DNA of 64,000 nt from a phage, in the sequence record PZ445448.1, one strand, 5' to 3'. Shown piece after piece: positions 6,890 to 62,657 of the stretch (positions within the stretch are counted from its first letter, which is position 1; each line of letters opens with the position of its first letter). The notes under the pieces are model-generated. The model made no database searches. It had not been told where the DNA came from and saw only the letters and a program-made list of their open reading frames with translations. Position numbers and translations under genes: made by a program.

Positions 6890-7480
6890 ACTTGAAAATT
6901 CCTGGCATATCAAGTGTAAGGGGGATTTCTAAAATGGATTTCCTCCTTTTGATATTTCACCGGGCTGGATATTTTAAAATTCTTAGAAAATCAGAAAATG
7001 GATCGAAAACTAAAATGGATTTTTCAGAGTAGGCGCGACAAGCTGAATAACTCATCCTATCGTTTGCACCATATTCCAGGCCACCATTATAGATTTCCCA
7101 CACATGCTAACCTCCCTCTACTAGAACTTCCTCCACTTGCCCTTAACCTTCTATGGTAACAATCTAACCACTATCTTGAAGTTGCGGTGCAGCTTTCCAA
7201 GTACTCGATCTACTTTTCATTTCATGGCTTGGATTTTCTGAAAATTTTTCTCGATAAATTTCTCAGTACTCGATCTGTTTTTCGTTTTCTGAATCGGATT
7301 TTCTGGAAATCGTTCCGGATCTCGACCTGAAATTTTTGGGGACGAAATCGATTTTTCGTTTTCAGAAATGGATTTTTAAAATTTCTATATGGGAATATTT
7401 TATGGGATACTGTTTTATAGGAAATTGTTACGGAGGGTAATTAGCATGCTAATTAAATTTATTAAATGCGAGGAGTTCTC
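6890..7480. repeat. gene-free AT-rich region with GGATTTT(C) repeats and duplicated AGTACTCGATCT
   Basis: at least 6 copies of (A)TGGATTTT and two copies of CAGTACTCGATCT; no ORF with SD. Confidence 0.5.
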
Positions 7481-7524
7481 ATTTAGAATTTTGAATGATA
7501 ATCATTCTCGTTTGCAGAATAACG

Positions 7525-7549
7525 GGCAGGCCCGGTGATTGTCTCCCCC
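7525..7549 (+). repeat. 25-bp core GGCAGGCCCGGTGATTGTCTCCCCC inside a longer hairpin; inverted partner at 17149-17173
   Basis: 24/25 identity to the reverse complement of 17149-17173. Confidence 0.6.
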
Positions 7550-7949
7550 GTCACCGGTGCCTGCCGTCCTTTCGATAGGTATATTGTGCCACCTGGCGGG
7601 GCCGCTGTCAACACTTTTCAAAAAATTTTTCTAACCTGATGCGCTAACCGCTGCAACCTGGCGGGGCCAGCCTGGCAGGACCTAACTGACCAGGTAGGAG
7701 AGAATGAAGGCTTGTAAACCTGGTGGGCCTATGCTATAGGACAGGTAACAATTGAAGAGGAGGTACAAAAATGAAAGGTAATGTGATCCCCTGGAAAATG
7801 TAGCTATTAATGACGCTGAGGCTATCGCCCTGGTTGAAAAGGCCATGGCGGGAGCGTTGGAACATAAAGAAGAGTACGAAAAAATGATGGTTAACCTGGT
7901 AGGGCGGCGGCAGGTGGATTCTATCATAAAAAATAATTTAAAATAATTG

Positions 7950-7977
7950 TTGACAACCGGGGGAGTCCTGCTATTCT
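7950..7977 (+). promoter_or_regulatory. sigma70-like promoter, first of the cassette array
   Basis: TTGACA and TATTCT 16 nt apart, followed by strong SD and ATG at 8030. Confidence 0.45.
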
Positions 7978-8029
7978 TACCCTACAAGGTGAACAACACC
8001 GCACTAACTAGTAAAGAGGATAAAAAATC

Positions 8030-8227
8030 ATGAACGCATACGGAATCAAAGTACGTCGCAACACTCGCCAGGTGGTCACCGATCAAGTGGTTTGCCTGGT
8101 GGATGTAACCATCAACAACGGGCAAGGCCTTTATAAATTTCGTCGCGGTCATAGCTATACCCTGCAACAGCTTAATCGTTGCGCCCTGACAAAAGGTCAG
8201 ATCAATCACTGGTTTAATAAAAAATAA
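8030..8227 (+). CDS. hypothetical small basic protein
   Basis: AAGAGGATAAAAAATC-ATG. Confidence 0.55.
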   Translation: MNAYGIKVRRNTRQVVTDQVVCLVDVTINNGQGLYKFRRGHSYTLQQLNRCALTKGQINHWFNKK

Positions 8228-8230
8228 GTA

Positions 8231-8259
8231 TTGACATACGCCCCGACACAAAATATACT
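8231..8259 (+). promoter_or_regulatory. sigma70-like promoter TTGACA-N17-TATACT
   Basis: hexamers with 17-nt spacer. Confidence 0.5.
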
Positions 8260-8291
8260 GAAATCACAAAAGACACTAAGAGGATAAAATC

Positions 8292-8690
8292 ATGAAAACC
8301 ACAACCTTTAATTTTGACAATGCCGACTTCTCTTTTTCTGATGTCAAGAACTGCCGCCGTGATCGTGGATTTTACAAGGCTTATAATCTGGTTGGCCTGG
8401 ACGATGATAATAATTTGCACGAAGTAGCGGAGATCCGGTACTATGCCGCCGCCAGCGGTAACACTAACTACTGCGTTTTTTGGATACACGACAACAAGAA
8501 CAATAAGTACGGTTATACTGGCGGCAAGGCGAGCGGTCACGGTTATGATAAAGCTAACGCAGCACTTGAGAGCGCATTAAATGCTATGGGGATCACTGCC
8601 AACGGCTGGATCTATGAAGAAGAGTTTTTGTCAGCACTTGCTGCCCACCTGGGGTATAAAAAGCACATTGTGACATGCGCCCACGAATAA
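8292..8690 (+). CDS. hypothetical protein
   Basis: AAGAGGATAAAATC-ATG. Confidence 0.55.
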   Translation: MKTTTFNFDNADFSFSDVKNCRRDRGFYKAYNLVGLDDDNNLHEVAEIRYYAAASGNTNYCVFWIHDNKNNKYGYTGGKASGHGYDKANAALESALNAMGITANGWIYEEEFLSALAAHLGYKKHIVTCAHE

Positions 8691-8782
8691 AAAAAAAAAA
8701 AATTATTGACACGCTGCAAAATTCAAGTAAACTATACACAAAAGGCGGGAATGTTTCCCGCCAACACAAAGGAAAAAAGATC

Positions 8783-9178
8783 ATGAATAAGAACGTACGC
8801 CGCATCATGAACGAACTGGCAAACGATGAAAAAATTATTGATATGCATTTGGTCAACATTTGCCGCCGTTGTGTAACATATAACAACCGCGCCGCAAAAG
8901 CGCGTGAGATGAACGCAAAAGGCACCTTAAAGCCCTTTCAGGTGGTTGTAAAATCTATAACCAGTGCAGCAGGCCAGGCGCATGACCACAACAACGGGAG
9001 CACTAATATTGATCCGTCTTACGTAATGAAACGGATCCGGACTTGCAAGAATAAAGAGCAGGTGTATAACGTCATAGATTGGCTGGACTCCCTGGGCGAT
9101 GTGGTTTATAATAGGTTTTCTGCAGCTATCGAGATCCAGCTTGACAGACTGGACGGGAAAGTACTGAAAACTTACTAA
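8783..9178 (+). CDS. hypothetical protein (start at MNKNVRR)
   Basis: promoter, GGCGGGAATGTTTCCCGCC hairpin, CA-rich leader, AAGGAAAAAAGATC-ATG. Confidence 0.55.
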   Translation: MNKNVRRIMNELANDEKIIDMHLVNICRRCVTYNNRAAKAREMNAKGTLKPFQVVVKSITSAAGQAHDHNNGSTNIDPSYVMKRIRTCKNKEQVYNVIDWLDSLGDVVYNRFSAAIEIQLDRLDGKVLKTY

Positions 9179-9180
9179 GT

Positions 9181-9228
9181 TTATTTTTAGATGGCCTTGA
9201 CGCCAGGGCCATCAATAAAGTAAACTAA
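9181..9228 (+). repeat. 45-bp palindromic element copy 1 (TTATTTTTAGATGGCCTTGAC.CCAGGGCCATCAATAAAGTAAAC)
   Basis: near-identical copies at 9800-9846 and 13511-13560; hairpin ATGGCC..GGCCAT overlapping TTGAC -35-like hexamer. Confidence 0.65.
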
Positions 9229-9257
9229 TCCCAGTTAAGCTAAAAGGAGGCTTGAAG

Positions 9258-9377
9258 ATGAGCACTACACGCCAGCACACAAAGGTAACTATTATCGTTT
9301 GCATCATTGGTTATATCCTGGCGCAAATGTTGATGGGTAGCGCCAACGGTGTCGCAAAATTTTTCTTAAACTTTTAA
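9258..9377 (+). CDS. small hydrophobic peptide (39 aa)
   Basis: AAAGGAGG SD 7 nt before ATG; single predicted TM helix; below ORF-track size cutoff. Confidence 0.45.
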   Translation: MSTTRQHTKVTIIVCIIGYILAQMLMGSANGVAKFFLNF

Positions 9378-9455
9378 TTGACAAGCTAACTTAGATCGGT
9401 ATACTAAACACATCAACGGGAAAACTTCCCAGAACACACAAAAGGAGAAAACACC

Positions 9456-9797
9456 ATGACCACTATGACCGCCGCAGAAAAAGCTATTCAGATCGCTGCC
9501 CTGAAAAAACAGATCGCAGACCTTGAGAATAAGATCGATAACTTTGAAATCGACGAGGACAAGTACGACGAAAACTATGATGAATGGTTAGACGAGATCT
9601 ACGGCGAAATTATGATCGGAAACATTTCTTTTCTTCCGTCGCGTATCCTCAAGGAGCTAGATCCTATCGCTTACCGCTGCGGATTTAGCGACTACATCGA
9701 CAGCCTGGATATTGAGGACGATGAAGAATACCAGGAATTACAGACAGAGTTGGAAGAAGCAAAAGAAGAGCTTGCGGAGCTGGAAGAAAACGAGTAA
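9456..9797 (+). CDS. hypothetical acidic coiled-coil protein
   Basis: AAAAGGAGAAAACACC-ATG; promoter and hairpin upstream. Confidence 0.55.
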   Translation: MTTMTAAEKAIQIAALKKQIADLENKIDNFEIDEDKYDENYDEWLDEIYGEIMIGNISFLPSRILKELDPIAYRCGFSDYIDSLDIEDDEEYQELQTELEEAKEELAELEENE

Positions 9798-9799
9798 GA

Positions 9800-9846
9800 T
9801 TATTTTTAGATGGCCTTGACTCCAGGGCCATCAATAAAGTAAACTT
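9800..9846 (+). repeat. 45-bp palindromic element copy 2
   Basis: sequence identity with 9181-9228. Confidence 0.65.
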
Positions 9847-9886
9847 TATACTGTTAACACTGAACTAATGCATAGGAGTTAAAACC

Positions 9887-10132
9887 ATGGCAGCACTAAT
9901 CACTAAATATTACGCCCCTACCAACACCAAAAGCGCCCGTATCATGGTAAAAGGCTTCGGACGTAAAAAGGTTTACACCTGGGATTATGCCTTAGACACG
10001 GAAGACAACTACACCAACGCGATGACAGATTTTATTAATGAGCTGAACACGCGGATCTTGACAAATTATAAAATTACCGATATTGCCTATATAGGGGAAG
10101 GCGGGATCTGTTTTGTCGGTATCGTCAAATAA
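9887..10132 (+). CDS. hypothetical protein
   Basis: AGGAGTTAAAACC-ATG. Confidence 0.55.
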   Translation: MAALITKYYAPTNTKSARIMVKGFGRKKVYTWDYALDTEDNYTNAMTDFINELNTRILTNYKITDIAYIGEGGICFVGIVK

Positions 10133-10208
10133 ACTGTTTTTTCGGTGGTCCTGGTAGCAGGGCCATCTATAAAGATAGTTTATCAATACAATGAAAGGAG
10201 AAAGTAAC

Positions 10209-10562
10209 ATGATCAGTGGGGCAAGTTTTATCATTGGCGCTATTGCTACGGCTTTAATTGTAAATAAGATCCAGGATAAAAAGGAAAGAGGAAGTACCGC
10301 CCTTGCAGAATATCCATTTTGGGCATTCAACGATAACGAAGATTATATTATAAAGTATAAAAATAAAGAAGGTGACCAAGTAACACCACGACCGATCCCG
10401 GCTTACAAAATGCAGGAAACACTATACCGCCTGGAGGCGGGTGGCGCAAAAATTGTAGACTTTTGGGGATACGACCACACAGATCAGGAAGTTATAAAGC
10501 GCCGTATCCGGGCTATTCAGGCCAATATTGAAGTTAGCAAGGGGGGAATATATGAAAATTAA
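10209..10562 (+). CDS. hypothetical membrane protein (start at MISGASF)
   Basis: AAAGGAGAAAGTAAC-ATG; N-terminal TM helix. Confidence 0.5.
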   Translation: MISGASFIIGAIATALIVNKIQDKKERGSTALAEYPFWAFNDNEDYIIKYKNKEGDQVTPRPIPAYKMQETLYRLEAGGAKIVDFWGYDHTDQEVIKRRIRAIQANIEVSKGGIYEN

Positions 10563-10749
10563 TTTCGAGAAAATTGTAAAGCGCCCTCATGATTCCGAAG
10601 AGCTGCCAGAACGCCGCCAGCGTAACAATAAACTGAATAAGCCAAAAAGGTTTGGGAAGATCTGGCGGAATCATTATGATCGTAAATTGCCGGGCCTACT
10701 TTTGGAACGTGAACGACAAGCGGAACGATACCGCCACAAAGACAAATAG
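10552..10749 (+). CDS. hypothetical small basic protein
   Basis: GGGGGAATAT-ATG; overlaps upstream stop. Confidence 0.45.
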   Translation: MKINFEKIVKRPHDSEELPERRQRNNKLNKPKRFGKIWRNHYDRKLPGLLLERERQAERYRHKDK

Positions 10750-10756
10750 CAACCAA

Positions 10757-10786
10757 CGCCCCGCCATTGTGCGGGGCTTTTTATTT
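10757..10786 (+). terminator. intrinsic terminator
   Basis: GCCCCGCCATTGTGCGGGGC followed by TTTTTATTT. Confidence 0.65.
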
Positions 10787-10966
10787 CTATCCTACGAATA
10801 GCGCCCCTGGTTGGCCCTGTAAGCGCCAAAAAGGCCCCCACCTATGCAATCGCCCCTTTAACCTGAAAACATCGCCCAGGGCCGTTTTATGGCGTTAAAA
10901 ATATCATTGACATCGTCAACAGGTTAGCTATACTAACCACATCAAAGAGAGAAAGGAGTAAACGCC

Positions 10967-11227
10967 ATGCGTAAATTAAAAAATTTTGATAAAGTTGATG
11001 TTATCCTGAATAATTTTTACTACTGCAACAACAAGGCTATTTGGTGGCGTGATAGTTCCACCGATAAAGTCAAAGCGCGCTTTCTTCAGGGGCACTGGCA
11101 AGGCCGCCCAGTGATTAAAATCATGGGGCAATTGGTAGCGTTTAAAAATTGCCGCCGTGTTGATGACGTTGAGGAGATTTTAAACATTTTGCGCCACAAT
11201 AATTTAAAAAATAGTGTTGACAAGTAA
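10967..11227 (+). CDS. hypothetical protein
   Basis: TTGACA..TATACT promoter; AAGGAGTAAACGCC-ATG. Confidence 0.55.
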   Translation: MRKLKNFDKVDVILNNFYYCNNKAIWWRDSSTDKVKARFLQGHWQGRPVIKIMGQLVAFKNCRRVDDVEEILNILRHNNLKNSVDK

Positions 11228-11244
11228 ATCTCAATAAGTATAAT
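11217..11244 (+). promoter_or_regulatory. sigma70 promoter TTGACA-N16-TATAAT
   Basis: consensus hexamers. Confidence 0.55.
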
Positions 11245-11301
11245 TAAACACACAGGCGGGAAAACTTCCCGCCACTAACAAAGAAAACAGGAGAAAATAT
11301 C

Positions 11302-11925
11302 ATGACCACCGTTAACATTACCACAGGTTACAATTTAGCTTTCGACGTGCTGACCGACGAACAAAAAGAAAAAGCCGTTGAAATGGTCCGCGAAAGAGAA
11401 GAACACAGCGGGGATAACTTTTTTGCAGAAAGTGTAATTGAAGACTATAAAGAATATATCTTTCCAGAGTATGGCCTTGAAGATACCGAAGTACATTGGT
11501 CCGGCTTTTGGTGCCAGGGCGACGGCGCATCAATCAGTGCGGAAAACGTGGATTTAGAAAAATTCTTGCGTAAAGTCAAGTCTCTGACTAAATTCCGCTC
11601 AATTCGTCACTTGTTCGGCACAATGCACGATGGCGAGCTATCCGCAAGTGTTGAGCGCGATCCATATAGCCGTTATAGTCACGAAAACACTGTAAGCGGG
11701 TACATCGATACTACATGGCTAGACCTGACCGCCAAACAAGAAAACAAAGTGGAAGACCTGGAAGAACTGATCACCGAGACGGTACGGGAGCTATCCCGCA
11801 AGGTTTACGTAGACCTGGAGGAGGCCTATCTAGAACAGTTCACCGCAGAAAACCTGATCGGCCTTATCGAGGCCAATGATTGGCGGTTTGATGTCGATGA
11901 ATATGGTGAGATGACTTTTTCATAA
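11302..11925 (+). CDS. hypothetical protein
   Basis: hairpin GGCGGGAAAACTTCCCGCC then AACAGGAGAAAATATC-ATG. Confidence 0.55.
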   Translation: MTTVNITTGYNLAFDVLTDEQKEKAVEMVREREEHSGDNFFAESVIEDYKEYIFPEYGLEDTEVHWSGFWCQGDGASISAENVDLEKFLRKVKSLTKFRSIRHLFGTMHDGELSASVERDPYSRYSHENTVSGYIDTTWLDLTAKQENKVEDLEELITETVRELSRKVYVDLEEAYLEQFTAENLIGLIEANDWRFDVDEYGEMTFS

Positions 11926-12015
11926 ATAAAGTGTTGCAATAACCTAAAAACCTGCTATATTAAAACTCAAGGGGGCAAGACGTTTGCCCCCACACAAAAC
12001 AAAGAGGAAAACATC

Positions 12016-12396
12016 ATGAAAAACACTACTAAAGCTATTGACACTGTTATGTTTAACCTGGTTACATTCCGTGAAGATATGAAAGATCTTCCACGTGAAA
12101 CAGTGTGCGATCACATTGAAAACTATCGCAAACTAATCAAAGAGTTGCCTTTAAAACGTGACCAGTATGCGGCTAACGCTATGCTTAACGCCATGATCAA
12201 AAAGATGATTCAGTGTGATTTAACTCTGGCCTATGATTATGCAGGTGGTCGTTTTGCAGTATACAATCAGCCCGTGCCTGGTATGAGCACCACCGAAGAA
12301 TTGCACGCGTTAAATCTGAAACAAGATGTATGGGATAACATGCCCCGCGTGGTGGTGTGGGCAGAAAGCGGAAAGATTTACGGCGATAATTTTTAA
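12016..12396 (+). CDS. hypothetical protein
   Basis: hairpin GGGGGCAAGACGTTTGCCCCC then AAGAGGAAAACATC-ATG. Confidence 0.55.
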   Translation: MKNTTKAIDTVMFNLVTFREDMKDLPRETVCDHIENYRKLIKELPLKRDQYAANAMLNAMIKKMIQCDLTLAYDYAGGRFAVYNQPVPGMSTTEELHALNLKQDVWDNMPRVVVWAESGKIYGDNF

Positions 12397-12460
12397 TCAG
12401 GTAACAGGCGGCATATTTGCCGCCTTATTGTTAAACAGAACTGCAAAAGAGGTACATAGA

Positions 12461-12832
12461 ATGGAATTTATTATTTTGGCTGTAGTAGTTGCCTTGTTCA
12501 ACGCCTGGATCGCTGGCAAGATAGGTAGATCCGCTTTTCTATGGTTTGTTATATCTATTTTCCTGGGAGTGGTTGCAACTATTGTATTGGTTATCCTTGC
12601 AATTGTTGACAAGGGCGATAATAGAAAGGGTAAAGTGTTTTCCGACCTGTATGACGCACAAACGTTTGTCAACGCCTATTATAGTGATCTTCCAGTCTCC
12701 CTACGCTGCAGCCTGGCACAACAGGTTTTTGATGAGGCTAAAACCAGAGACCAAGCCCATGAGATATGTTTAACTGAAGCGGATCGCCTATTTGAGAGGA
12801 ATAGAAAATATGTGGACCAGCCGTTTAAATAA
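12461..12832 (+). CDS. hypothetical membrane protein (start at MEFIILAV)
   Basis: terminator hairpin then AAGAGGTACATAGA-ATG; two hydrophobic segments. Confidence 0.5.
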   Translation: MEFIILAVVVALFNAWIAGKIGRSAFLWFVISIFLGVVATIVLVILAIVDKGDNRKGKVFSDLYDAQTFVNAYYSDLPVSLRCSLAQQVFDEAKTRDQAHEICLTEADRLFERNRKYVDQPFK

Positions 12833-12942
12833 CGCCACGTTAATTAATCCCTTTAGTGAAGATTTGAAGCCAGCCGCCTGGCGTGACGGATTCAATAACG
12901 AACGCTTTATTTTCAGGCCTGATCTTGAGGAATTTTATAACA

Positions 12943-13068
12943 ATGGATCGAACAACAGCGGAGATAATTTTTCTTGTGGTGTGCGTGGTGATAGGACTCC
13001 TGGGGGCCATTGTAAACCACGTCACTACTAACAGGAGGGAAGGGGGAGACGATGACAACCAAGGATAA
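12943..13068 (+). CDS. possible small TM peptide
   Basis: hydrophobic 41-aa ORF; competing overlapping ORF 12810-13031 in another frame. Confidence 0.25.
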   Translation: MDRTTAEIIFLVVCVVIGLLGAIVNHVTTNRREGGDDDNQG

Positions 13069-13170
13069 GCCATGCGCTGATAAGGTGCGCCGTGTTATGG
13101 TATGGCTTGAGATTATCGCCCTTGAAATATTGTTAGGCGTAGGGATGTACTTTATCGCTGTAAGTAACTA
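13052..13170 (+). CDS. small hydrophobic peptide (39 aa)
   Basis: GGGGGAG SD then ATG; followed by terminator. Confidence 0.4.
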
Positions 13171-13173
13171 AGA

Positions 13174-13203
13174 GCGGCCCCCGATCATGGGGGCCTATCT
13201 TTT
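13174..13203 (+). terminator. intrinsic terminator
   Basis: GGCCCCCGATCATGGGGGCC followed by TATCTTTT. Confidence 0.6.
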
Positions 13204-13309
13204 AAAAAATTTTTCTTCCGGGGTGTTGCAATCCGGTCCGGAATGTGGATAATAACAATCAACGGGGAGCTAATCCCCACCACCACAAAAACCAGAAAGG
13301 AGAAACAAA

Positions 13310-13510
13310 ATGAGCAACAATATCCGCGTTATTAACTTCAAAAAAGAAGAAAAAATTGCCGTGCTGATTGACGGTCAAGAAATCTTCAAGGGCGACTATG
13401 AAGATCATCAAACGGCGATTAGTATCACTCGCGTGATTGGTTATCATAATTTCTACCCCCAAGGCGCTGAGGCAGCAGTTAAACGAATCAAAGAGATTGT
13501 AGGCCTGTAA
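13310..13510 (+). CDS. hypothetical small protein
   Basis: hairpin GGGGAGCTAATCCCC then AAAGGAGAAACAAA-ATG. Confidence 0.55.
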   Translation: MSNNIRVINFKKEEKIAVLIDGQEIFKGDYEDHQTAISITRVIGYHNFYPQGAEAAVKRIKEIVGL

Positions 13511-13560
13511 AATTTATTTTTAGATGGCCTTGACTTCAGGGCCATCGATAAAGTAAATTT
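13511..13560 (+). repeat. 45-bp palindromic element copy 3
   Basis: sequence identity with 9181-9228. Confidence 0.65.
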
Positions 13561-13603
13561 AAACCCTGTTAAAATACCACGCAGTTAACAAGGAGTGATA
13601 GAC

Positions 13604-13903
13604 ATGTTTATCCAGGCTAATAATCTTTATTTCTTTGATGGTCAGATCGTAGATGGTGTGGAAGTGGAGATCACCGGGTGCCCTGGCGGTCAGGCTATGA
13701 CTTTTCGGAATAATGCCTTTGATGATTCTCATATCGTTATGAGAATGGAAGTTACGAAGCTGGACGACAAGAAAACACTTATTGACTATTCTGTGAAAGA
13801 TCATCCAGACTACCGCATGATCCATGGTGATTTGTGCATTGTTGACCGTGACAAGGTGGGCGGCATTGTGATCGCTATTGTGAACGATGTTTTCTCAAAC
13901 TAA
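13604..13903 (+). CDS. hypothetical protein (start at MFIQANN)
   Basis: AAGGAGTGATAGAC-ATG. Confidence 0.5.
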   Translation: MFIQANNLYFFDGQIVDGVEVEITGCPGGQAMTFRNNAFDDSHIVMRMEVTKLDDKKTLIDYSVKDHPDYRMIHGDLCIVDRDKVGGIVIAIVNDVFSN

Positions 13904-13920
13904 TTTCAGCAGGCGATTTT

Positions 13921-14271
13921 ATGAAAGTCAAACTATATTACCTTAATGAGCTTAACCCCCTTGCCCAGGTCCGCGCCCTAGCTAATACCTTGATTTGTGA
14001 GAAATCTGTATATTGTGTTGAGCTTAACGCCATGCGTGAACGTCTCAAAGGTGGTTACTTTGACATCCATGCTGCAATCAACGGCCTGAATATGGAATTT
14101 ATACGCTTACGTAACAGCCGCCGGAATCTGGCAAGAATGGAACAAGATCCGGCCCACCTTCGTAAGCTGGTTATTGAAAATCATCTGATGTTTAATGCCG
14201 AGGGTGATTATTACCATTTTCACCGCAAACGCTGGTACCGTGGCGGCAATACAGGCAAGAATGCAAAATAA
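13921..14271 (+). CDS. hypothetical protein
   Basis: ORF in array. Confidence 0.5.
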   Translation: MKVKLYYLNELNPLAQVRALANTLICEKSVYCVELNAMRERLKGGYFDIHAAINGLNMEFIRLRNSRRNLARMEQDPAHLRKLVIENHLMFNAEGDYYHFHRKRWYRGGNTGKNAK

Positions 14272-14308
14272 GGCCCCTAGCAGGGCCTGCAGCAATATAA
14301 TCACATAA

Positions 14309-14340
14309 AGGCCATGCGGTTGCATGGCCTTTATTATTTT
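14309..14340 (+). terminator. intrinsic terminator
   Basis: AGGCCATGCGGTTGCATGGCCT followed by TTATTATTTT. Confidence 0.65.
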
Positions 14341-14473
14341 GGCGTTACAACGGCATACGGGGCGCTTAAAAAATTTTTAAAGAAGTACTTGCATCATTCC
14401 CGACAATATGGATAATAAGAGTTGTCGAGGGGGAGGCCCCCAATCGTTGACCAGATAGATAGGAGTTAAAATC

Positions 14474-14758
14474 ATGGCTATTGTTACCGCTGGCGATGTA
14501 GTAGAAATGGAAGCAAAATACTTAAAAGCGGGTATGCACATCCTACGGAATGATCAAGAGTTATTATTAACGATGGTTGACTATAATCACGGCCAGGATT
14601 ATCCAAGCATCGACTACTTTTTTGAGTATGTTGATGAAGAGTTGAAAGAGGATGAGGCCTATTGCGGTGAGTTCTGCAACTTCTTTTGTCCTGATGAGGT
14701 TGTAAAGGTTATTTATCAACCTGGCGTAGCTTTCCCGCTGCACGCTATCAATAAATAA
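14474..14758 (+). CDS. hypothetical acidic protein
   Basis: hairpin GGGGGAGGCCCCC then AGGAGTTAAAATC-ATG. Confidence 0.55.
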   Translation: MAIVTAGDVVEMEAKYLKAGMHILRNDQELLLTMVDYNHGQDYPSIDYFFEYVDEELKEDEAYCGEFCNFFCPDEVVKVIYQPGVAFPLHAINK

Positions 14759-14813
14759 ACCTGGCGGGGCCGAAAAGGCCCCCAATTATGAAAATAAAGA
14801 GAGGCAAATCATC

Positions 14814-15047
14814 ATGATGGAACAAATTAAACGCGCCGAGGCTATTAATGGCAACGTGATCTATTTTGTCAGCAAAAACGAAAAAGGCGTACCATATGCG
14901 GCAGTAATAGTACAACCTGACGGCGATTATTGGTTTACTGTGTACGGCGCTTATTCTTTTGGGCGTCCAGTGCATGATAAAATTTTGAAAGTAGCGAACC
15001 CTACCGGGAAGAATATCACAGCAGAAAAATTTTTTGAAAATAGTTGA
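14814..15047 (+). CDS. hypothetical protein
   Basis: AAGAGAGGCAAATCATC-ATG. Confidence 0.5.
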   Translation: MMEQIKRAEAINGNVIYFVSKNEKGVPYAAVIVQPDGDYWFTVYGAYSFGRPVHDKILKVANPTGKNITAEKFFENS

Positions 15048-15302: not shown

Positions 15303-15389
15303 AATAGTTTGACAACAGCCATCTTACAAAGCATAATACATAAGGCGGTGGAATGGTCCGCCACCTGGAACAAAGAAGAGGTAAACACC

Positions 15390-17173: not shown

Positions 17174-17281
17174 TGTCATATAAGAACTATAAAAACCGTT
17201 GACATCTGCCAGGGGGTGGGGTAACATTTATCTTGAAGGGGCAAAGGTGCCCACACAACAACCAGAAGAGAGGAAAACACT

Positions 17282-24277: not shown

Positions 24278-24627
24278 TATTCGTCCTCCTCTTCGGTACC
24301 TGCTTCCAGTAATAAGTTAAGAATATCTTCTGCACAAGGCTCATAGAACTCTTGGCCTTCATTATCGATGATTTTGTAGTCATCTCCGCGAATAATCAGA
24401 GGATCACTCTCAAAATTATCGAGACCTTTAACAACGACAACACGATCGATTGCCATCATTGTAAGAACTTTATCGACATCTTCCTCTGCTACACCATACT
24501 GCAGCAGAATGTCTTTGGTAGGAGGAACAGCATCCACCACAACACCGTTACCAAAACCTTCCGGTAAGTTAGCTAAAATATCTTCCGGAACCACACTAAC
24601 ATCAAAACCAGTAATTTCTACTTTCAT
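24277..24627 (-). CDS. hypothetical acidic protein
   Basis: ORF in array. Confidence 0.45.
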   Translation of the reverse strand: MKVEITGFDVSVVPEDILANLPEGFGNGVVVDAVPPTKDILLQYGVAEEDVDKVLTMMAIDRVVVVKGLDNFESDPLIIRGDDYKIIDNEGQEFYEPCAEDILNLLLEAGTEEEDE

Positions 24628-24888
24628 TTACAGCACCTCTTCGTCAACTACTTCATAAAAATGGCCTGGGATTGCAATAGCGTTCTCACCTTCACCTACA
24701 AACACAGTTCCGTCAAGAATCAACATCATAAGAGTTTCTGGAATATCCTCTTCCTGAACGTTGCCAAAACCTTTAATCAGCTCGTAGGTTGGAAGATTTA
24801 CCTCTAAGATGTCACCATCTTTAGAGCGGAAATCAACACCATCCTGAATCTCTGCCATTTCAAGGTTTTTCAGTTTAATCTTCATCAA
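24628..24888 (-). CDS. hypothetical small protein (MKIK family-like)
   Basis: N-terminus MKIKLKNLE similar to neighbouring small proteins. Confidence 0.45.
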   Translation of the reverse strand: MMKIKLKNLEMAEIQDGVDFRSKDGDILEVNLPTYELIKGFGNVQEEDIPETLMMLILDGTVFVGEGENAIAIPGHFYEVVDEEVL

Positions 24889-24964
24889 TCAGTCTCCCGT
24901 CTTGTTAAGATGAAGGTATTATTTCACACAGGGTTGGCGTTGTCAACACCTGTGTGCAAGAAAA

Positions 24965-25360
24965 TTACTGAAACAGTGCGGATAAATTACCTTCTGGTGG
25001 GAACTTATCTGCCAAAAACGGTGTTAGCACAGTAGCCTTCTGAAGATCTGGGGTCCACTCGTTGTTCAGAACATCCCAGTAGTACGCAATGTTGCTGTGT
25101 GGGTGCCGCATTACGAACTTTTTCCCTTCGTAGTCATCTGAAACCTCTACAGAAGAAATAACAACAGAATCTTCAAGGGTTTCTTCATAGAAAGATCCAC
25201 CTTCAAATTTCCAACGAGATGCAAGAGCTCCTGCCTTGAACGCTGCAGATAACGGACTGTCTGCAAGAACATACATTTCTTGCACTCTGTCGCTGCGATC
25301 TTTGCTTCTTACGTTGTATACAGTATCTGAGCTATACTCAACACGGTATAGGCTTACCAT
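24965..25360 (-). CDS. hypothetical protein, paralogue of 27167-27565
   Basis: shared segments HP.S...YW......WTP with 27167-27565. Confidence 0.45.
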   Translation of the reverse strand: MVSLYRVEYSSDTVYNVRSKDRSDRVQEMYVLADSPLSAAFKAGALASRWKFEGGSFYEETLEDSVVISSVEVSDDYEGKKFVMRHPHSNIAYYWDVLNNEWTPDLQKATVLTPFLADKFPPEGNLSALFQ

Positions 25361-25719
25361 TACCGCACCTCCTCAATAACTTCCACATCTGAGCCCACCA
25401 CAAATGCAAAAGGACAGGTTTCATGAAAGACATCCGGATCGCCGCCAAGCTTGCTAACAATCTCTCCACCACTAATAAACACAAGCTCACCGATATTCAT
25501 CAGATTGCTGAAATAGTACCCATAATGATTAAAGAATGCAGCAGGGTCAGGTAGACTAGTAGCCTCAAGCACTACATCAGTTGAGGTTACTTTCTTATCA
25601 TAACCTCTCGCCTTTTGAGATGCAAGATCTGCAGAATCCTCAGGCGACCGGAGATGCACAGGAATTGTTTCACCAATAAAGCGTACTTTCATATTATCAC
25701 CCAACAACCATAGCTTCAA
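25360..25719 (-). CDS. hypothetical protein
   Basis: ORF in array. Confidence 0.45.
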   Translation of the reverse strand: MKLWLLGDNMKVRFIGETIPVHLRSPEDSADLASQKARGYDKKVTSTDVVLEATSLPDPAAFFNHYGYYFSNLMNIGELVFISGGEIVSKLGGDPDVFHETCPFAFVVGSDVEVIEEVR

Positions 25720-27832: not shown

Positions 27833-28049
27833 TCTCGTCCTCCACTATCTCTACATCCTCACCAAGGGCAAAGTTGTAGGTCCACTGGCTGTCAAAGCAG
27901 TCCTGAGATGCACCAGCGGAAATAAGATCTGCACCTTTTATTTTTAAAAGGTCAGGATAATCTTCGTTAGGGATAGCGGTAAACACTTTCCCCACTAAGG
28001 GCTCCTGACCAATATAGAAGCTTGAATCTAAAACTTTAACTTTCATCAA
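27822..28049 (-). CDS. hypothetical small protein, MKVK family
   Basis: MMKVKVLDSSFYIGQ..LVGKVF....IKGADLISAGA. Confidence 0.5.
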   Translation of the reverse strand: MMKVKVLDSSFYIGQEPLVGKVFTAIPNEDYPDLLKIKGADLISAGASQDCFDSQWTYNFALGEDVEIVEDENEG

Positions 28050-59546: not shown

Positions 59547-59620
59547 ACCAGTAAAAACTTAAATATCTGTACTATAAGGATTCGTATGTTTTATGTTCGC
59601 TCTGGAACAGAGGTTAGTAA

Positions 59621-59703
59621 CTGTCCGTGATACGGACACTACTGTCCGTCACGCGGACACATCTGCCCGTAATACGGACACTAACTGTCCGTGATACGGA
59701 CAC
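59621..59703. repeat. four tandem 21-22-bp units each holding a 7-bp-arm hairpin (CTGTCCGTGATACGGACAC)
   Basis: units start at 59621, 59642, 59663, 59685; TGTCCGT / ACGGACA arms. Confidence 0.7.
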
Positions 59704-62553: not shown

Positions 62554-62650
62554 GCTAGGTAAGCCCTTTGGCAAGGGCGAGGATTTTTAATCCTGAAAAT
62601 AGACGAGGTAGTCGTTGAATACATAGGTGGTTCGATTCCATCACCTAGCA
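62554..62650 (+). ncRNA. 97-nt tRNA-like element with irregular anticodon region
   Basis: perfect 7-bp acceptor GCTAGGT/ACCTAGC, D-arm, T-loop TTCGATT, but about 10-24 nt too long and no clean anticodon stem. Confidence 0.35.
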
Positions 62651-62657
62651 CCTTTTT

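Follow-up and report, generated by a model that had tools for sequence, protein, structure and literature searches.

Here, we analysed a palindromic element that is repeated in the early region of a phage, represented by a stretch of 64,000 nucleotides (hereafter the window) from sequence record PZ445448.1. The element occurs four times on the + strand between positions 9178 and 13560, each time at the stop codon of a gene, and its RNA folds into a bipartite hairpin of about 50 nt that resembles the RNase III signals in the early mRNA of phage T7. We are confident that it serves as an intercistronic processing or stability element of some kind at the RNA level. With somewhat less assurance, and by analogy with T7, we consider the four copies probable processing and stabilising hairpins for the RNase III of the host, which is Escherichia coli, as for T7. 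The region is 90–98% identical to more than 100 genomes of Vequintavirus, the rV5-like E. coli myophages, with phage isim (MN850597, 98.4%) as the best match.

The original prediction, made from the letters of the window, had described a 45-bp palindrome at 9181, 9800 and 13511, placed 2–3 nt after a stop codon and 40–70 nt before the next start codon. The three sites are real: exact matches to the core GATGGCCTTGACNNCAGGGCCATC begin at 9190, 9809 and 13523 of the + strand, whereas shuffles lead one to expect 0. The 45-mers themselves start at 9181, 9800 and 13514, however, 13511 being the first base after the stop. The preceding stop codons end at 9178, 9797 and 13510; the adjacency to the stop thus stands, with an actual distance of 1–3 nt, while the downstream start codons (9258, 9887 and 13604) lie 32–45 nt past the 45-mer, not 40–70 nt away. 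A repeat search additionally revealed a fourth, diverged copy at 10130–10180 (full hairpin 10129–10183; 67% identical) that had been missed. The stem of roughly 10 bp noticed at the outset is present, but forms only the upper half of a larger structure, the flanks of which pair as well. The four copies are listed below in order of position. R1 and R2 denote covariance models of the element and of six T7 sites only, respectively, and the descriptor is a sequence-blind structural pattern; all three are described further below.

Copy 1, 9178..9226, + strand: after the stop of gene 8783-9178; lower stem 9178-9187/9217-9226, upper stem 9190-9199/9204-9213, loop ACGC (9200-9203), internal loop UA (9188-9189)/AAU (9214-9216), cut predicted at 9216/9217 by analogy with T7; folding free energy (dG) −25 kcal/mol, z −6.4 (+ strand) and −2.2 (− strand), R1 81 bits (+) and 44 bits (−), R2 19.1 bits (E 0.019).
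Copy 2, 9797..9845, + strand: after the stop of gene 9456-9797, at the 3' end of a cassette shared with phage KKE7M; upper stem 9809-9818/9823-9832, loop ACTC, internal loop UA/AAU (9833-9835), predicted cut 9835/9836; z −5.5, R2 17.5 bits, descriptor match.
Copy 4 (diverged), 10129..10183, + strand: follows gene 9887-10132; 13-bp lower stem 10129-10141/10171-10183 that takes in the stop codon, upper stem GGUGGUCCUG/CAGGGCCAUC (10144-10153/10158-10167), loop GUAG, internal loop UC/UAU (10168-10170), predicted cut 10170/10171; dG −28.2 kcal/mol, z −8.2, R2 15.9 bits, descriptor match.
Copy 3, 13510..13560, + strand: after the stop of gene 13310-13510; upper stem 13523-13532/13537-13546, loop ACTT, internal loop UA/GAU (13547-13549), predicted cut 13549/13550; z −6.5, R2 15.9 bits, descriptor match.

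All copies follow a common plan of about 50 nt, in which a lower stem of 10–13 bp is separated by a 2×3 internal loop from a 10-bp G·C upper stem with G·U wobbles, capped by a tetraloop. The lower stem pairs a T-rich 5' flank, starting at the stop codon or within it, with an A-rich 3' flank, which contains the TAAACT once taken for a −10 hexamer. All four copies begin at the stop codon or at most 3 nt after it, and the 3' arm CAGGGCCAUC-N-AUAAAG is identical among them. Past copies 1–3, at a distance of 5–10 nt, a short motif C(A/T)GTTAA is conserved (9231-9237, 9850-9856 and 13565-13571), which is absent after copy 4 and after the copy of KKE7M; it could be left over from duplication of the unit, mark a region where transcription starts or be the target of a nuclease.

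Folding of the + strand RNA yielded free energies of −22 to −28 kcal/mol and z-scores of −5.5 to −8.2 for the four copies. The complementary strand reached a z-score of only about −2.5, because the U·G wobbles turn into C·A mismatches there; with the T·G wobble in its 10-bp stem, the element therefore pairs better as RNA of the + strand than as palindromic DNA. In line with this, R1 assigned 76–83 bits to the + strand versus 31–45 bits to the − strand, a gap of about 40 bits per copy. Covariation was analysed with 17 distinct variants from the window, seven GenBank genomes and three IMG/VR loci. Standard pairs occupied 98.8% of the pair cells, compared to 35–57% when the partners were slid by 1–3 columns, and all 20 pairs of the structure are maintained among the variants. 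Four lower-stem pairs show double compensatory changes (A-U/G-C, U-A/C-G, U-A/G-U/A-U and A-U/U-A); pair 9/55, which joins the base after the stop codon to position 5 of the supposed −10, occurs as A-U in 7 variants, G-C in 6 and G-U in 3. Four upper-stem pairs vary one-sidedly, always to or from a wobble, the last two loop positions vary freely, and CAGGGCCATC of the 3' arm is invariant in 17 of 17 variants. The number of independent events behind these figures is small, the genus being only 5–10% divergent. Copy 4 differs from copies 1–3 at three pairs of the upper stem, and pairing is kept in each case (A-U to G·U, C-G to U·G and U·G to C-G). Strand-specific pairing and compensatory change indicate that selection acts on the RNA helix, and the original prediction was right to consider a role at the RNA level. 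A copy 1 variant in IMGVR_UViG_3300010279_000001 (around 2766–2830, − strand) has a loop 1 nt longer (TTGATAACC) and the lower 3' arm AAATAAAATAAAT; its G-to-A and C-to-T substitutions convert U·G to U-A and G-C to G·U with pairing kept, and its '−35' becomes TTGAT.

In T7, the early precursor of about 7000 nt carries five RNase III signals, in which single-strand cuts leave stabilising hairpins (Nicholson review, PMC3867540). We folded the T7 gaps (NC_001604) with R0.3, R0.5, R1, R1.1, R4.7 and R18.5 and obtained upper stems of 9–10 bp that are G·C-rich with G·U pairs, loops of 3–5 nt, a 2×3 internal loop and an A/U-rich lower stem. The element has the same bipartite hairpin, the same internal loop of the form U(A/C)/NAU and the same intercistronic position at or near the upstream stop codon; R0.5, R1, R4.7 and R18.5 start inside that codon or at most 2 nt from it. 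The letters of the internal loops are 5' UC/UA and 3' UAU/AAU/CAU in T7 and 5' UA/UC and 3' AAU/GAU/UAU in the element. The loop of R1 (UA/AAU) is that of copies 1 and 2, and the loop of R1.1 (UC/UAU) is that of copy 4. Copies 1–3 also resemble T7 in having U·G at a distal-box position and A-U at proximal-box position 2. In contrast, no primary-sequence homology was detectable by BLAST or by R1 with default filters, the lower stem of the element is longer (10–13 bp) and nearly all A-U, and the first and third proximal-box positions (pb1, pb3) and the first distal-box position (db1) differ from the T7 consensus. The context is different as well: the element resides in transcripts of the host polymerase in a 137-kb myovirus, with four sites in 4.4 kb, and its cleavage is predicted.

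Each set was recovered by the covariance model of the other and by a single sequence-blind descriptor. The latter specifies an upper stem of 9–11 bp that includes 4 or more G-C pairs, a 3–5-nt loop, an internal loop of 2–3 by 3 nt, and a lower stem in which no fewer than 6 of 7 pairs form. It matched exactly the four copies in the 64-kb window, and in T7 it matched R0.3, R0.5, R1, R4.7 and R18.5 together with one terminal-repeat hairpin. No matches occurred on the opposite strands of T7 and the window, shuffles gave about 0.2 per genome, and across 190 kb of other loci only three unrelated structures were among the matches. R2, run unfiltered on both strands of the window (128 kb), ranked the copies 2nd, 4th, 5th and 6th (19.1, 17.5, 15.9 and 15.9 bits; E 0.02–0.17), with full-length alignments in which every pair is canonical; the background peaked at 12.8 bits in the rest of the window and at 11.4 bits in phage PVP-SE1 (100 kb). 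The top match of R2 on both strands (25.6 and 19.1 bits) was a hairpin at 14297-14340, owing to its T7-like AAGGCC...GGCCUUUAU core; by appearance, this hairpin looks like an intrinsic terminator. In the reciprocal search, R1 run unfiltered on the 8-kb early region of T7 placed R0.3, R1 and R1.1 as its top three, each weak (E 0.8–4), and gave no matches on T7 with default filters.

The geometry of the element also agrees with what is known of the enzyme. Substrates of E. coli RNase III typically span two helical turns, the helix between cut and tetraloop has a minimum of 11 bp, and internal loops limit cleavage to one strand, leaving a protective 3' hairpin (Pertzev & Nicholson 2006, PMC1540722). 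The helix of the element totals 20–23 bp (upper 10 plus lower 10–13), equal to about two turns. Above the predicted cut lie 10 bp and one non-canonical position (A·A, A·G or C·U), just as R1.1 has 10 bp and a U·C pair, which gives the 11 positions if the cut falls where we place it. Regarding the boxes, pb2 must be A-U or U-A, db2 strongly favours U·G, and the other preferences are G-C at pb1, A-U at pb3 and A-U at db1 (PMC1540722). Copies 1–3 carry A-U at pb2 and U·G at db2, at the same stem positions as R1.1.

Several points weigh against RNase III processing and temper our confidence in it. Copies 1–3 are off consensus at pb1 (U-A), pb3 (G-C) and db1 (C-G), as is copy 4 at pb2 (G·U) and db2 (C-G); T7 R4.7 and R18.5 are off the box consensus as well, and none of the verified cellular RNase III sites is a perfect consensus match (PMC5371410). 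The descriptor was written after both the T7 sites and the element had been seen. The cross-model scores are individually weak (E 0.02–4), and the four copies are paralogues and therefore amount to about one independent observation. The positions of the T7 sites, taken to be those of Dunn & Studier 1983, are unannotated in record NC_001604. Phage rV5_ev146 grows despite the loss of copies 1 and 3; these copies and their neighbours are therefore dispensable for growth. In 50 kb of PVP-SE1, a member of the sister genus Seunavirus, neither the strict descriptor nor R1 or R2 found a counterpart, and the device is therefore not general to the subfamily. A literature search found neither a transcriptome nor biochemical data for rV5-like phages, and no paper linking RNase III to them.

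How would such hairpins act? The sequences show the structure, its strand specificity and covariation, the position between cistrons and the likeness to T7 sites; from the T7 precedent, we infer that RNase III is the enzyme, where it cuts and how the cut affects mRNA stability. Host RNA polymerase would produce early polycistronic transcripts and pass through each hairpin on its way. Once transcribed, a copy would fold into about two helical turns of duplex broken by the 2×3 internal loop, which host RNase III may recognise like the T7 early signals R0.3, R0.5, R1 and R1.1. The enzyme is predicted to nick the 3' side of the internal loop only, after CCAUC-NAU (9216/9217, 9835/9836, 10170/10171 and 13549/13550). 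Some 35 nt beyond its stop codon, the upstream cistron would retain a stable G·C hairpin as a block to 3'-to-5' exonucleases, while the downstream cistron would be freed as a separate mRNA. As a side effect, the near-identical DNA copies act as joints for homologous recombination, by which early-gene cassettes are lost and exchanged.

The copies reside in a block of small early genes on the + strand (positions 1 to about 18,500, functions unassigned), which is interspersed with near-consensus sigma70 promoters (TTGACA-16/17-TATACT) and canonical U-tract terminators. The flanking signals are as follows.

8706..8733, + strand: sigma70-type promoter TTGACA-16-TAAACT, driving gene 8783-9178, copy 1 and gene 9258-9377; listed as P194 in Table S4 of the rV5 genome paper.
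9378..9405, + strand: sigma70-type promoter TTGACA-16-TATACT, driving 9456-9797, copy 2, 9887-10132, copy 4 and 10209-10749; its rV5 homologue is P192 (rV5 genome paper).
10758..10777, + strand: canonical intrinsic terminator GCCCCGC...GCGGGGC followed by TTTTTATTT, closing the operon with copies 2 and 4.
13226..13253, + strand: weaker promoter-like site TTGCAA-16-GATAAT, between a terminator at 13176-13195 and gene 13310-13510 with copy 3.
14305..14334 (within 14297-14340), + strand: perfect palindromic hairpin AUAAAGGCCAUGC-GGUU-GCAUGGCCUUUAU with a U-tract, closing the operon of copy 3 after gene 13921-14271.

All copies are located within operons delimited by consensus promoters and U-tract terminators, each between a stop codon and the next Shine-Dalgarno (SD) sequence, and the operons are presumably transcribed through the hairpins. 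A promoter scan found no promoter-like site for genes 10209-10749 after copy 4; these genes must therefore be reached from promoter 9378 by read-through of that copy. One of them, an open reading frame (ORF) of 65 amino acids at 10552-10749, is a member of PF08200 (Bacteriophage 1.1 protein, T7 gp1.1; 44.2 bits versus a cutoff of 21). It shares its operon with copies 2 and 4 and is the second gene downstream of the latter. Pairwise BLASTP with T7 gp1.1 was not significant (E 0.11), and it took the Pfam profile to reveal this homology.

Which other explanations could account for the element? A processing or stability hairpin that works without RNase III is unlikely. Its G·C upper stem would block 3' exonucleases, and RNase E would act on the A/U-rich 3' flank once terminating ribosomes have melted the lower stem. 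The flanks are indeed A/U-rich, as RNase E prefers, the weak lower stem (A-U and G·U pairs) starts at the stop codon and hence within the footprint of a terminating ribosome, and the outcome, an upstream mRNA ending in a hairpin, would be the same as with RNase III. The four compensatory double changes in the lower stem count against this explanation, as they point to selection for pairing and not for a single-stranded site, and it leaves the precise 2×3 loop and the NAU letters shared with T7 unexplained.

A weak sigma70 promoter for the downstream gene, modulated by the hairpin or by a palindrome-bound protein, appears still less plausible to us. The TTGAC(G/T)-18 nt-TAAACT/TAAATT match seen in the original prediction does exist and covers 9 of 12 positions in copies 1–3. 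TAAACT is also the −10 of the predicted rV5 promoter P194, the genes after copies 1–3 have no other promoter, and the conserved C(A/T)GTTAA falls where transcription would start. But copy 4, which otherwise conserves the element, has CCTGGT in place of the −35. Conservation is strongest in the 'spacer', opposite to what promoters show, and the '−10' is the 3' arm of the lower stem, its position 5 covarying with the base right behind the stop. A spacer of 18 nt is suboptimal, and matches of 9/12 occur here at about chance density (64 promoter-like sites versus 43.5 ± 6.9 in shuffles). The element is not among the 33 promoters listed by the rV5 authors, and the asymmetry between T·G and C·A makes a DNA cruciform less likely to extrude. 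A −35/−10 pair at 16–18 nt that is kept among the copies is therefore not what the sequences contain, and the earlier view that the element is no simple promoter holds. The accompanying idea of a hairpin that occludes the −35 as an operator or switch is not supported: TTGAC is absent from copy 4, the 'spacer' is invariant, and no alternative pairing of the element with the SD that would make a switch exists. We likewise rejected operator, riboswitch and thermometer as candidates, given that copy 4 breaks the DNA symmetry and alternative SD pairing is lacking.

An intrinsic terminator or attenuator is highly improbable. The element is a G·C-rich 10-bp hairpin directly after a gene, and in the record of phage Murica (KT001917) the homologues of copies 3 and 4 are annotated with 'terminator' features of 45 nt. 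That label is not justified because no U-tract follows the hairpin, and the original prediction had rightly held that it is no canonical terminator; the tail reads AAUAAAGUAAAC on the + strand and UAAAAAUAA on the − strand. Moreover, a terminator scan that recovered the true neighbouring terminators did not report the copies, the promoterless downstream genes require read-through, and the element is not among the 20 terminators of the rV5 paper.

We give equally little credence to a protein binding site, be it a dimeric DNA operator on GATGGCC...GGCCATC or the target of an RNA-binding translational regulator. An inverted repeat with half-site letters invariant in copies 1–3, and the 3' arm kept throughout, would suit such a site. 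Copy 4, in contrast, loses the DNA symmetry at 2 of 7 half-site positions with all RNA pairs kept, the sites number only four, each of them behind a stop codon on the sense strand and 18–30 nt from the SD, and no candidate regulator was identified, the neighbouring genes all being without assigned functions.

The copies might finally be mainly a recombination module, similar to a mobile regulatory cassette and devoid of a specific RNA function, which we regard as a very poor explanation. Recombination at the repeats is visible: window positions 9227-9796 are exactly absent from IMG/VR contig L012 and from phages ECP32 and magaca, each of which has one hybrid of copies 1 and 2. KKE7M shares only window positions 9377-9849 (93.7% identity), that is, the segment from the −35 of promoter 9378 via gene 9456-9797 to the 3' end of copy 2, with homology stopping at the hairpin. 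The repeats mark the joints of exchangeable early-gene cassettes. Sequence identity would suffice for recombination, however, and the strand-specific wobbles, the compensatory changes of copy 4 and the fixed position at the stop codon would be left unexplained. We also considered whether the deletions of rV5_ev146 were mediated by the repeats and rejected this, as the junctions (8775/9270 and 10697/17158) lie away from them.

Processing and exchange might come together in a more speculative extension of the RNase III reading, which we put forward only tentatively. The element might be a portable 3' module, a T7-type RNase III signal that moves with early-gene cassettes among unrelated coliphage lineages and doubles as a homology joint. 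Such a cassette would consist of promoter, 5' leader hairpin, ORF and processing hairpin, and the lineages would be Vequintavirinae, Stephanstirmvirinae and possibly Autographiviridae, the last because a gp1.1 homologue is encoded in the same operon.

The distribution of the element is narrow. The search of a whole genome for further copies that the original prediction had suggested was done with R1 and the descriptor on isim (138,289 bp); it returned the same four sites, all on the coding strand within 4.4 kb, and nothing else. With BLAST, about 120 Vequintavirus records contained the element, typically with 3 detectable places per record; the only other match was in KKE7M, a phi92-like phage (Justusliebigvirus). 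A pattern scan of IMG/VR mostly gave chance matches in coding sequences, and only L009, L012 and L013 were relevant. Searches by tblastn for orthologous intergenic regions in other genera, starting from the 81-aa flanking gene and from the gp1.1-like gene, gave homologues only within the genus or in unrelated phages. An Rfam scan of 8000-15000 in E-value mode returned nothing significant, the best overlap being rhtB sRNA (23 bits versus a gathering score of 55, E = 2). Matches of a relaxed descriptor in PVP-SE1 were mostly 5'-leader hairpins, a different class. One structure of PVP-SE1 (NC_016071, around 27880–27925, − strand) is a bipartite hairpin directly after the stop codon of gp195 (z −5.1), with a 6-bp lower stem, a 3×3 internal loop and a 10-bp upper stem; it overlaps a promoter-like site TTGACT-N17-TAAGAT and may be an analogue of the sister genus with unrelated sequence.

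Among known systems other than the T7 signals, the Promoter early Stem-Loop (PeSL) cassettes of T4-type phages come to mind, which combine a short terminator stem-loop with a near-consensus sigma70 promoter and an SD immediately downstream (PMC2839356, PMC4122927). Like these, the element is a repeated intergenic regulatory motif between small early ORFs with unassigned functions, and recombination between copies deletes or swaps the intervening ORFs. Unlike these, it has no U-tract terminator, its 9/12 promoter-like match overlaps the stem and is lost in copy 4, and PeSLs number tens per genome. Of the PeSL hallmarks, the element hence displays the association with indels and ORF exchange, but not the terminator-then-promoter architecture. 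RNase III sites were reportedly found in the early mRNA of the Bacillus phages SP82 and SPO1 (Panganiban and Whiteley, 1983). These are also a few highly similar intercistronic hairpins in early transcripts of a large virulent phage, while the enzyme is the Bs-RNase III of their host and the sequences are unrelated. Repetitive extragenic palindromic (REP) elements are imperfect palindromes present on the chromosome in hundreds of copies. These and other intercistronic stabilisers of E. coli are likewise stable hairpins just past a stop codon that can shield the upstream cistron from 3' exonucleases, whereas REP elements lack the two-stem geometry and the internal loop.

Further features of the window and of related records caught our attention. 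Downstream of nearly every consensus sigma70 promoter in the early block, the leader opens with a short G·C hairpin (e.g. GGCGGGAAnnTTCCCGCC) and continues with a C/A-rich tract and an SD, for instance at 8734-8782, 9406-9455, 11245-11301, 15338-15389 and 17228-17281. The combination looks like a standard 5' stabiliser plus translation-enhancer leader, and PVP-SE1 has the same habit with GGCCGGG...CCCGGYC hairpins (24435-25475, − strand). About 1 kb at 7033-8029 is free of ORFs and coincides with the box marked 'non-coding' on the rV5 map; three tandem-like repeats of 65–74 bp (7191-7376) lie within it, together with repeated CCTGGCGGGGCC motifs, which also occur at 14759. Four head-to-tail repeats of 21–22 bp (TAACTGTCCGTGATACGGACAC) at 59618-59703, each with an inverted repeat GTCCGT...ACGGAC, resemble iterons or operators. 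Inside a cluster of seven tRNAs, ARAGORN reported at 62554-62652 a tRNA of 99 nt that has a four-base anticodon (atcc) and no assigned identity; it is labelled tRNA-OTHER in isim. Seventeen GenBank records of the MG0656xx series (e.g. MG065644), marked UNVERIFIED and named 'Campylobacter phage' with Campylobacter jejuni as host, are 94–100% identical to rV5-like coliphages here, and the assignment of C. jejuni as host looks doubtful.

Most likely, the element is a further, predicted example of a known device and involves no new principle. If confirmed, it would nevertheless provide a compact insulator or stabiliser hairpin of distinct sequence for synthetic operons, and the 'terminator' annotations of deposited genomes would have to be corrected. 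RNA processing has not been described so far in rV5-like E. coli myoviruses; confirmation would extend the T7 style of RNase III-dependent early-mRNA maturation to this large and therapeutically used group. It would also tie an RNA-processing signal to the borders of exchangeable early-gene cassettes. Should the portable-module reading prove true, these phages would possess a counterpart of the PeSL system of T4 that is based on RNA processing.

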